DNA of 63,203 bases, the filler included, from Lenisia limosa (lineage: Eukaryota; Protista; Breviatea), in the NCBI GenBank assembly GCA_001655205.1. It is 10 parts of 10 records of this genome, joined end to end, with 100 filler letters (N's around TTAATTAATTAA, not from the genome) between each part and the next. Parts side by side here need not be neighbours in the genome. Positions count along the whole stretch, not along the records: positions 56,850 to 61,666 come from LPNZ01011261.1; positions 61,767 to 63,203 come from LPNZ01007445.1; 8 more parts are not named here. The stretch is one strand, 5' to 3'. Below, piece after piece: positions 59,901 through 62,895 of the stretch (its first letter is position 1; every line of letters begins with the position of its first letter). The notes beneath the pieces are model-generated. The model had not been told where the DNA came from. It ran no database searches and worked only from the letters and a program-made list of their open reading frames with translations. Both the position numbers and the translations under genes were made by a program.

Positions 59901-61489
59901 ATGCTTTTATTATCATATTCGGGATTTGAAAGGTTTCCTTCTCTTGGTAGTCTGCATGATACTACTCTATTTGTTTCTGGATGCTTTGGGTTTTGTTCGT
60001 TCTAATTGATGTGTGGACACAATAAAGATGACTTTCAGTTCAAAAGGATAACGAAAAAAACAACAATACAAGCCCAAAGACGGAAGTTATTCGATTGAGG
60101 AAAATCTATATAAATTGCAATTTATTTGATAAAATATAGACTTTTTCTACCAATAAATAAGAAGTGTACATGAAGGTAAACTGAAAAAGGAAATTGAGGT
60201 ATTTTTAGAGCAAAAATTACGTGATAAAATCCCTACCGGAAAGGGTCGCGAACTGCTCAGCAAAAGCCTCGGAGGAAGACGCCCATCGGTCCTTTTCGTG
60301 CGCCAAACTGTCTAGCAGACGGACAGAGCGTTCAACCTGGGGTGAGGATGATGGGAGCAGGCGGCAGGCAGGAGATATTACTTTTTGAAGATGGAACCAC
60401 CAGTTTGTCTCAGTGACAACCCAATCCTTCTCTCTCCACCTTAATAATGACCCCTCCCAACAATTCCCTAAACAGTCTCACCGCCTCACGTGAGTAATCT
60501 CGCTTCACATTGACCCCCCCCCCCCCCNNNNNNNNNNNNNNNNNNNNNNNNNNNNNNNNNNNNNNNNNNNNNNNNNNNNNNNNNNNNNNNNNNNNNNNNN
60601 NNNNNNNNNNNNNNNNNNNNNNNNNNNNNNNNNNNNNNNNNNNNNNNNNNNNAAGCTCTGCGTCTGAGGGGGGGGGGGGAGTAAAATTGGAAAACTTACG
60701 AAACAAAAACAAAGCCCAAAAGCAACTCTGTTGGCTGAAAGTGGAAAGTTGGGGGGATATGAACGAAAGAATGAGAAGTGTATCATGAGTACTGGAACTT
60801 TACAGATTAGGCAGATATTGCAAAACAAAATAAAGCCAATGAAAAAAATATATATAGCAATCGCGCAGCCTACCCTTATTGGCGAGTTCGATTGCAGTTT
60901 CTTCAACCTAAAAGTGTTAGAAAGGGGCCCAGTTTCTAATCTTGATCGGTCAGCTTTTCACTACCCCCCCCCCCNNNNNNNNNNNNNNNNNNNNNNNNNN
61001 NNNNNNNNNNNNNNNNNNNNNNNNNNNNNNNNNNNNNNNNNNNNNNNNNNNNNNNNNNNNNNNNNNNNNNNNNNNNNNNNNNNNNNNNNNNNNNNNNNNN
61101 NNNNNNNNNNNNNCGTAATAGGCCTGGGCAAGAACCCACTTGATGAGTGGTCCGCAGGCCTGGTGTGTATTAACGTTATGATTGGGTGTATTAACTTTAT
61201 GATGGGGTAATGGATGACGGGGTTGAGAATTTATCGAAGGACCTTGCGCTGAGCTTAATCAAGTGGTAGGTATTTTCATAATGTAAACTTTTCCTAGGAA
61301 CTGCAAATTAAGTTTATCCATTTTGAGTGTCCCGAGTCTGTGCACCTAGTGGTCCTGTCTCACACATCATCTCAATCGAGAAAACAAGAGACGATGTGGG
61401 TTCTTTTTAGTTCTTTCACTCTGAGCACGTCCTACCTTCGAGCCCTTCTGTGCCGCCTCGAACGTGAAGTTGGGCCGGCTCAGGTAGTC
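56916..61489 (-). CDS. DYNC1H1: Cytoplasmic dynein heavy chain, stalk to AAA5 region, internal fragment
   Basis: Collinear exons: [51 protein letters not shown]...|[105 protein letters not shown]...PPDLCS. Confidence 0.95.
57270..57345 (-). repeat. Intronic repeat module C ending at a 3' splice acceptor (representative copy)
   Basis: Consensus GAGTTTCAGA...GTTCGTGATTAGTACCTTTACGCCAATATTCTTCATCGACATTTCCTTCGTTTCAC-C(n)-AG. Copies at 2293-2365, 17060-17112, 17160-17245, 54938-55037 and 57270-57345. Confidence 0.85.
58229..58430. mobile_element. 202-bp MITE in a dynein intron
   Basis: Perfect 22-bp TIR AGGGTGGTAATTCAGAAAATTG / CAATTTTCTGAATTACCACCCT. Confidence 0.8.
58687..58864. repeat. 42-bp intronic minisatellite (4 full copies plus a partial copy)
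   Basis: Unit GATGGT(A/G)CCCATTCATTTATATGATAGCATATTATAAGAAGC. Confidence 0.95.
60664..60735 (-). repeat. Intronic repeat family B ending at a 3' splice acceptor (representative copy)
   Basis: Transcript-strand consensus GCCAACAGAGTTGATTTTGGGTTTTTTTGTTTCATAAATTTTCCAATTTTACTC-C(n)-AG. Copies or fragments at ~2370, 12440, 16073, 34924, 48830, 50428, 50814, 54598, 57065, 60664, 61490, 61770-61950 and 62376. Confidence 0.85.
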
Positions 61490-61977
61490 CTTCTGGGGGA
61501 GGGGGGGAGGGGAAGTAAAAATGGATCATGAAACAAAAAAAAAACAACACTGTTGACTAAATATTTGACAACGAGAGATGAAAACACCAAAGGCTGGTCG
61601 CTTCAGAGGGACAGGACTTGTTTATCATAATCCCCCCCTGTCAACCTTGAGCCTGGCTCTGATGGANNNNNNNNNNNNNNNNNNNNNNNNNNNNNNNNNN
61701 NNNNNNNNNNTTAATTAATTAANNNNNNNNNNNNNNNNNNNNNNNNNNNNNNNNNNNNNNNNNNNNACAAAACAAACAAAGTCCAGGCCAGTCGCTTCTG
61801 CAGCACCACATCCCATCACTCCAGCGTACGTAAAATTTGAAAATTTATGAAACAAAATAAAACCCAAAATCAACTCTGGTTGGCTGGCAAAATTGGAAAA
61901 TTTATGAATCAAAAAATAAAAAAATAAAAAAAGCCCACAATCACGAGGGAATGGAAAATTCATGACACCCCCCATAC

Positions 61978-62895
61978 CGGAGAATTGCGCCTGGGATCCA
62001 AGAGTATGTTCCCTCCATAGACACGTTCCAAGACTAAAAAGGTAAGTCAAAAAGACTAAACAAAAAAGAGAGACGACTTAAATGGAATCAAACCAAGATA
62101 AACGAAACTGACTGAAAATTGTAATTGCAGTGATAGGAAGGAAAAATAATTAAATAAAATATAAAAAAAAGAGGAGGGGGGGGGNNNNNNNNNNNNNNNN
62201 NNNNNNNNNNNNNNNNNNNNNNNNNNNNNNNNNNNNNNNNNNNNNNNNNNNNNNNNNNNNNNNAATTTTTTTAAAAAAAAACACTTCATCAACCCACCCT
62301 GCTTTTGCTGCGAGCGGAATGCCAGAGAGCTGCTAGAGCCTCAACCGCCTTGTGACGCACATTGGGTTTCTTGTCCTGGGGGAGTAAAATTGGAAAATTT
62401 CTGAAACAAAAAAACCCAAATCAGCACACACAACAACAAAACAAACAAAGCCCAGNNNNNNNNNNNNNNNNNNNNNNNNNNNNNNNNNNNNNNNNNNNNN
62501 NNNNNNNNNNNNNNNNNNNNNNNNNNNNNNNATCAACTCTTTTGGTTGTAAATAAACAGGCTTCCTCAAATCAAATAACACCTAATATATCAAAGCACTG
62601 CTCACATGGACCCTATCGCCAAGGGATCTAGCAAGGCTCTGTGAAATGCAGTACGGATCACGGACACCGGCCTCACGCACAGCCTCAATTGCCTAATATG
62701 GTAAGTGTTAATTGCCAAATATGGTAAGTACAATTCCCATAATATGACCGGAGATAGTTACCTAATAGTCAGCAACTGCCAAATAAGGCAACTGCCTAAT
62801 AAGTTGTGTCATTAAGACTACCCGCCAACCTGGAGCCTCACATCAGCAACTTCGTCACGCATTCTGGTGCAGAGGTCAGCTGGAAGGGTAAGGTC
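61978..62895 (-). CDS. PDS5: PDS5-like sister chromatid cohesion protein (HEAT repeats), internal fragment
   Basis: Exons join as RMRDEVADVRLQ|AIEAVREAG...SLGDRVH|DKKPNVRHKAVEALAALW...|...YSWIPGAIL. This matches the PDS5 D-x-x-VR / R-x-RDKK-x-x-VR / WIP-x-x-IL succession as recalled from the family. Confidence 0.65.

Follow-up and report, generated by a model that had tools for sequence, protein, structure and literature searches.

Does a repeat whose copies end at the 3' splice sites of unrelated introns create those introns, or does it refit introns that already exist? The question is raised by a 63-kb window (63,203 nucleotides, the whole stretch of DNA analysed here) of the Lenisia limosa genome, in which a sequence-only reading had described a repeat module, B, ending at or close to acceptors in several genes, and had proposed that its family either generated these introns or keeps replacing their polypyrimidine tract and acceptor.

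Gene models and the repeat family

The window consists of ten short contigs from a fragmented assembly, joined by spacers, and contains many N gaps, several of which adjoin C or G runs. We modelled 13 genes by hand, using reading frames, splice patterns and homology, and obtained 118 acceptors, 113 donors and 97 introns, with a median exon of 80 nt and a median gap-free intron of 181 nt. The acceptors are predictions from frames and homology, not from RNA, and the models are imperfect in that two exons lack an open frame and a handful of borders failed to snap. The identity of the cytoplasmic dynein heavy chain was confirmed. Single exons gave Pfam matches below the cut-off to DUF229, sideroflexin, amidohydrolase and PDS5, the last lending weak support (E 0.003) to a label already proposed; for the labels Sfi1 and cyclase, searches with single exons of those genes gave zero database matches.

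In RNA run X2, a contig of depth 2 joins 58967-58895 to 58620-58494, which corresponds to a GT-AG intron as modelled and free of the element; six contigs of this run lie on the dynein contig and none spans an element acceptor, which is evidence neither way. In the comparison of orthologues, one protein fragment, P0021, has an apparent break close to 58467, where the window has an element-free intron. The idea that the repeat is an assembly artefact was rejected because contigs of run X1, which may itself be the source of the window, cover the unique flanks together with the copy at 61515-61610 with zero differences.

The family is modular: module B can be extended at its 5' end by X and Y, and there is a sister module, D. 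The fullest unit (48959-48823) has the order X (G-rich, starting with GT), Y (T-rich) and B. Complete copies end in TTTAC or TTCAC, which fits the putative branch-site motif of the genome, followed by a C-run, and the 3' ends of copies are fixed and their 5' ends ragged. A profile of B with its 5' extensions was built without the C-run and AG; copies score up to 121 bits, and in leave-one-out tests 12 seeds scored 14.9-64.6 bits, compared with at most 4.0 in eight block-shuffled windows and 1.7 in the reversed window. Since the profiles exclude the C-run and AG and the shuffled windows preserved local composition, mere polypyrimidine similarity was rejected. The seeds came partly from the earlier list of copies, and all profile matches above threshold were counted. 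Blocks of at least 12 bits are called strong, three weaker blocks being set aside; after adjacent modules had been merged there were 20 genic blocks (17 strong, 3 weak) and one outside genes. Module D, which the earlier reading had missed and which also ends at acceptors (57270, 55038), is present in five copies of 37-87 bits (shuffles at most 5.9) and has the same 3' ending as B. The element boundaries rest on the copies in the window, which are listed below.

2261..2404, + strand: D-B fusion flanked on each side by a C-run; separated from the acceptor by 107 nt that include part of a different repeat
6427..6512, + strand: old Y-B; the surrounding intron (6393-6574, 182 nt) is approximately collinear with the complete unit
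12255..12282, + strand: weak remnant of the 3' part (6 bits); acceptor 12291 lies 9 nt downstream
12440..12468, - strand: 5' part of B, antisense and 3'-truncated, 71 nt from a donor
13272..13299, + strand: partial B, 38 nt before acceptor 13337; C-run upstream
15917..16123, + strand: decayed Y-B, then a branch-like motif, a C-run and a younger Y-B; ends 13 nt before acceptor 16136
17068..17236, + strand: tandem D-D, the first copy followed by a C-run and AG, the second by a C-run at the contig end
29182..29240, + strand: X-Y start at a contig end, outside modelled genes; supports the 5' boundary of the unit
34941..34958, - strand: weak remnant of the 3' part (4.3 bits); acceptor 34924 lies 17 nt downstream
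40772..40844, + strand: weak antisense Y-B (6 bits), adjoining a gap that probably hides a donor
47202..47222, - strand: probable start of B, cut by a gap extending to the C-run of acceptor 47055; left out of the counts
48823..48990, - strand: B'-X-Y-B holding the fullest unit; mid-intron, 123 nt from the acceptor
50457..50530, - strand: Y-B ending 29 nt before acceptor 50428; the intron retains its own branch-like motif at -10
50814..50900, - strand: X-like donor to B acceptor, an 87-nt predicted intron matching the unit throughout, in frame and stop-free
54492..54662, + strand: Y..B composite, followed after 14 nt by acceptor 54676; C-runs both upstream and internal
54938..55002, + strand: module D ending 35 nt before the acceptor (exon from 55038); its 5' side is a gap
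57062..57174, + strand: Y-B in antisense to dynein, interrupting the G-run of donor 57189 and ending 14 nt from this donor
57276..57364, - strand: module D, 6 nt upstream of dynein acceptor 57270; preceded directly by a branch-like motif and C-run
60681..60745, - strand: module B, 17 nt upstream of dynein acceptor 60664; preceded by a branch-like motif and C-run
61515..61610, - strand: Y-B ending 22 nt before a dynein acceptor (exon from 61492); within X1 contigs
61767..61953, - strand: tandem B'-B-X-Y in a PDS5-like intron, B-to-X fusion at 61830/61829; continues past the contig end
62384..62558, - strand: start of B, a gap, then Y-B; ends 8 nt before acceptor 62376

On the dynein contig (4.8 kb), 3,254 contigs of run X1 matched, and the summed X1 depth reaches 35,000-41,000 in three repeat-holding bins, compared with about 20-32 for unique contigs; this suggests that the family may number thousands of copies, a depth sum not being a copy number and X1 possibly being the source of the window. 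The exact B pattern had zero matches in metagenome contigs.

Position, strand and flanking motifs

Fifteen of the 17 strong genic blocks, which are spread over eight modelled genes, lie in transcript sense (p 0.001), and sense blocks ending at most 40 nt from a predicted acceptor make up 11 of the 17, the null being the 17.8% share of element-free intron bases found that close to an acceptor. With ends taken from the profile only (two hand-extended 3' ends reset) there are 10 such blocks, with p 3e-7 for random strand and 4e-5 given sense. The sense bias and acceptor position claimed for the family are thus borne out. The other four strong sense blocks meet a C-run at a contig end (one), run off the contig (one) or lie 107 and 123 nt from the acceptor (two). 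All eight positions that had been taken for acceptors (16136, 34924, 50428, 50814, 54676, 60664, 61490 and 62376) are an AG before an open exon, 61490 being the second AG of an in-frame tandem pair of which we used the first (exon from 61492). Strong copies (39-62 bits) accompany seven of them, but the match at 34924 reaches only 4.3 bits, about the level of the shuffles, and at 50428 the copy stops 29 nt from the exon. A module C, counted earlier together with B, is indeed sense-biased (five sense; two antisense, in the PDS5 contig), but its sense copies end 71-295 nt from acceptors.

Altogether 13 of the 118 acceptors carry a copy, two of these copies being weak, and gaps probably hide further ones, for example at 47222-47055. 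In 38 loose ends from other X1 contigs the consensus has CAG straight after the C-run and then disagreement (0.37), the pattern to be expected were acceptors the end point of many further copies as well. A C-run (at least 7 C in 12 nt) is found at 11 of the 13 element acceptors and at 24 of the 105 others (p 2e-5). Donor G-runs are as common as acceptor C-runs, and a copy is present at 11 of 35 C-run acceptors compared with 1 of 31 G-run donors (p 0.003, or 0.014 with the weak copy at 40772 counted). The single antisense copy at a donor, 57062-57174, also missed earlier, splits the G-run, with more G-run beyond it, in mirror image of the acceptor cases. Targeting of C-runs alone fails to give this contrast and a second filter, probably selection, is therefore needed; selection is also suggested by the fact that sense copies end in a branch motif, the one signal that has to be restored when something inserts between the branch site and the AG. 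Instead of selection, the contrast might come from longer microhomology at acceptors or from a route coupled to splicing. Over the 17 blocks, the strand opposite to sense holds six AATAAA and 17 donor-like words, versus one and two on the sense strand.

At the 105 element-free acceptors the A of a YTNAY motif peaks sharply at -9/-10 (-16 to -6 in 71 of them), from which we infer that this motif is the probable branch site of the genome. At 9 of the 13 element acceptors the nearest YTNAY is the terminal motif of the element, lying at -8 to -24 and once at -37, although only two of the nine place it at -8 to -10 and the rest at -13 to -37. Two element acceptors retain a motif of their own at -9/-10 downstream of the copy, and of the remaining ones one has an internal motif only and one has no motif. 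The element seems to supply the predicted branch site, and the C-run and AG look host-derived or common to both.

Upstream of the copies, a second C-run lies within 60 nt in 9 of 16 sense blocks (background 6.3%), and in 5 of the 16 it directly follows a branch-like motif with no exon after it (background 0.9%); in a 25-nt window an upstream C-run is found in 6 of 18 blocks (background 3.7%). These flank tests were designed post hoc, the pattern having already been seen, and the block at 54938, whose 5' flank is a gap, was excluded. Each stranded tract may represent either the acceptor region that the intron first had or the end of an earlier copy, and whichever origin applies, new copies land in a C-run. 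With the fixed branch-like 3' end, this displacement of a branch motif and C-run supports the proposal that the family keeps replacing the polypyrimidine tract and acceptor.

Random insertion followed by selection only, copies being retained where they strengthened a branch site and lost elsewhere, would agree with the strand asymmetry of harmful signals and with the mid-intron position of some copies; near-neutral mid-intron sense copies should then dominate, but only 2 of the 15 strong sense blocks are clearly mid-intron, and the two-sided C-runs would be unexplained, so that we give this reading hardly any credence.

Intron creation or invasion of existing introns

In the available parts of the introner surveys, what defines an introner is similarity that extends to both ends of the intron, and insertions into existing introns are filtered out (PMC9860276, PMC12130899). 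The present family, multi-copy in introns of unrelated genes, resembles introners as a many-copy non-coding repeat that sits at splice boundaries in sense and carries a splice signal, but introners, as described in those parts, share both intron ends and this family only the 3' end, without junction duplication (PMC9860276, PMC12130899, PMC11282704).

The full unit, with its GT start, G-rich head, branch motif, C-run and AG, has the anatomy of an intron, and its length (about 140 nt plus the C-run) is near the median of 181 nt; it could be an introner that created these introns, the 5' parts of which decayed and the 3' parts of which were refreshed by later copies. Starting at its first base, the intron 50900-50814 matches X (z 4.0, p 0.002, the highest among 109 donors) and, up to the acceptor, B, and the intron 6393-6574 shows a rough collinearity with the unit; a full-length copy may therefore on occasion be an entire intron. 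As a group, however, the 14 donors of element introns show no X similarity relative to 95 others once composition is controlled (p 0.44), a raw excess (p 0.002) having disappeared after this control and removal of overlaps, and none of the three X starts is at a modelled donor. Pairwise comparison of the 5' ends of element introns gave a mean score of 16.8 versus 15.7 for controls, and the 5' halves are unrelated between copies, unlike eight B cores that are 73-92% alike (median 83%). Target duplications at exon junctions, which are common but not required in introners, show no excess, with a mean of 1.7 nt in 10 element introns and 1.7 nt in 87 others (p 0.77). The four element-bearing dynein positions lack an intron in the best 80 related dynein loci, but these loci were selected for lacking introns (nearly all are intron-free here and the 3 of 80 with introns have none at the window positions), and element-free positions of the window are likewise intron-less there. 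The copies in mid-intron and the antisense copy at a donor also speak against the introner reading. The notion that most introns are decayed copies was rejected, as no decayed similarity was found in the 63 other introns of at least 80 nt, bar one gap-hidden copy.

By the defining both-ends test, therefore, the family is not an introner, and the proposal that it generated the introns fails save for one 87-nt intron. We regard intron creation as the main story, decayed introner included, as clearly unlikely, and invasion of existing introns, all routes taken together, as very probable. The family appears to be a variant of intron-invading non-autonomous repeats that refits acceptor regions.

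Fungal introner-like elements are similar in being co-linear with transcription, in decaying and in having no standard transposon marks, but in the sections of the source available they are whole introns with stable predicted folds, whereas here the copies are partial and fold no more stably than shuffles (PMC3443670). Intronic SINEs and LINEs of mammals share an orientation bias near exons, ascribed to selection against cryptic splice signals, but, as far as the part of that study at hand goes, they are depleted near exons and most near acceptors (PMC3088655), where this family is concentrated. The concentration at acceptors can be considered an unusual variant because mammalian elements are depleted there. 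A literal-word search, with most subscription papers outside its reach, returned no account of a repeat providing existing acceptors with branch sites; the supplementary family tables of introner studies could include this family or one like it.

Possible routes of copying into acceptor regions

The explanation that we favour, though as a tentative one that we would call quite possible rather than probable, is that the repeat spreads as a non-autonomous element into the C-runs of existing introns, likely takes over the branch site, and is copied most likely by target-primed reverse transcription. Insertion would take place in the C-run that separates the old branch site from the AG, and would displace the old branch site and part of the C-run upstream; splicing would survive as the element ends in a branch motif. 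Selection likely retains the sense copies, and antisense insertions into donor G-runs would mostly be purged, the strand they present carrying cryptic donors and poly(A) signals. Copying is the least certain step: an RNA with a C-rich tail would be reverse transcribed from a primer on the G-rich strand, by a reverse transcriptase encoded elsewhere.

Fixed 3' ends, ragged 5' ends and a junction of simple sequence are typical of target-primed reverse transcription, which often leaves a target duplication. The family has the fixed 3' end with simple sequence (the C-run being tail or target) and the ragged 5' ends of SINEs and non-LTR elements. Exact target duplications were not detected, the flanks of a copy being no likelier to be alike than swapped flanks (14 blocks, permutation p 0.22). 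A head derived from tRNA, 5S or 7SL RNA was not seen: no tRNA was found in the window and no Rfam family over X in 45451-63203 (the sole match was a sub-threshold microRNA on a C/T run). Among 18 open frames of gene-poor contigs there was no Pfam match, and no reverse transcriptase. Against the favoured explanation also stand the missing upstream C-run in 7 of 16 sense blocks, the one intron (50900-50814) that matches the unit end to end, and the two spacer-free fusions of a B end to an X start (61830/61829 and 48960/48959), which fit DNA circles equally.

These fusions, the B/D mosaics in other contigs of run X1 and the lack of exact target duplications speak for copying at the DNA level into existing introns, either by a rolling-circle element anchored at one end or by template switching during repair, which may start at G/C runs and copy from an acceptor that has the same branch-plus-C-run microhomology; if microhomology were longer at acceptors than at donors, the bias would arise without selection. 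Helitron-type elements form end-to-start tandem fusions and carry a 5' TC, a 3' CTRR and a subterminal hairpin. Inspection of the unit termini revealed none of these three marks, five copies showed no stable fold (z -1.0 to +1.9), and the target is a C-run, unlike Helitrons with their canonical termini and 3' hairpin. The absence of target duplication and the modular interior are Helitron-like as far as the available part of the source describes them (PMC12130899). In C. elegans, according to the portion of the report at hand, G-run-anchored lesions of 50-300 bp have one fixed end, but they are deletions and not dispersed insertions (PMC6804030). On balance we consider DNA-level copying unlikely, if still a serious candidate. 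As for MITEs, terminal inverted repeats were limited to a 3-nt inverted match, with p < 0.05 in 2 of 18 start-end pairs.

The template might instead be intron RNA: reverse transcription would start from the C-run of a lariat or a pre-mRNA and copy intron 3' ends into other acceptors, and read-through of the lariat bond would produce branch-end-to-GT fusions. Sense and acceptor bias would be direct consequences, in both fusions a branch-like motif is indeed followed directly by a donor-like head that begins with GT, and only 1 of 18 strong blocks lies outside genes, in 18.7 of 54.6 kb (p 0.006). However, a lariat junction should stop at the branch A and both fusions retain one extra base; the two may represent one ancestral event, non-genic DNA is poorer in C/G runs (1.2 vs 3.3 per kb), and the antisense copy at a donor is not predicted. 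We find this route very unlikely.

A broader reading, which we rate as rather improbable, takes intron 3' ends themselves as the self-spreading element: a module terminated by a branch site would be copied from acceptor to acceptor by way of its own RNA or of a splicing intermediate, would rebuild roughly one tenth of the 3' splice regions of the genome and, when copied at full length, would occasionally found a new intron.

Mobile elements are normally purged from acceptor regions, and a sense-biased repeat at acceptors in an intron-dense eukaryote is a real and unusual feature. If the family survives there through its terminal branch motif, it would be a selfish repeat that turns over core splice signals genome-wide, and as introner surveys filter out such insertions, the class may be overlooked elsewhere. 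Many natural pairs of old and new branch sites within single introns would make branch-site choice directly testable. If the reading of intron 3' ends as self-spreading elements were true, secondary intron invasion, branch-site turnover and intron gain would be linked in one family.

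Assembly gaps and repeats other than the element

Runs of C or G adjoin many gaps in the window. The gap of 139 Ns at 60975-61113 is bridged by record 7 of X1 (the sequencing run whose contigs were compared with the window, and which may be its source) with 49 letters, so that gap sizes are to be read as estimates. Family C is found in introns, for the most part in sense orientation and with no tie to acceptors. A further, separate family is MITE-like, with inverted ends, and frequently forms nested pairs within introns; three tandem arrays are also present, and gene-poor stretches carry additional repeats, dispersed or duplicated, that are 100-340 nt long.

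Repeats in the window
Family C copies: 2888-3013, 12068-12184, 16220-16325, 23389-23491, 46599-46519, 49257-49217, 51813-51758, 62909-63013
MITE-like family copies: 183-412, 656-754, 1910-2010, 2423-2494, 2745-2835, 14115-14223, 30060-30239, 52392-52436, 55557-55703
Tandem array, 30-nt unit: 4431-4776
Tandem array, 21-nt unit, inside a predicted intron: 34612-34835
Tandem array, 42-nt unit, inside a predicted intron: 58645-58896
Gene-poor repeats: 17815-18083, 18307-18610, 24695-24807, 25163-25432; 52839-53487

An open frame in gene-poor DNA

Gene-poor DNA also holds an open frame of 206 codons at 21367-21984 (+). By eye, a stretch of it resembles a tyrosine recombinase; a Pfam search of the frame gave no match.

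Introns and splice signals

Across the whole window, intron density is very high and exons are short and even (median 80 nt), with G-rich donors, C-rich acceptors and a branch-like motif just 9-10 nt from the exon. The DUF229 gene has a predicted frame-keeping intron of only 23 nt at 1047-1069 (+), and further predicted introns measure 29-45 nt. At 38330-38457 (+), a 32-nt unit that takes in both the end of an exon of the sideroflexin gene and the adjoining donor is present four times, which provides tandem potential donors. Behind an element copy, two AGs 3 bases apart form a tandem in-frame acceptor at 61494-61490 (-).

The 87-nt predicted intron at 50900-50814 (-), which matches an element unit from donor to acceptor, contains no stop and keeps the frame, and could therefore be retained as coding sequence.
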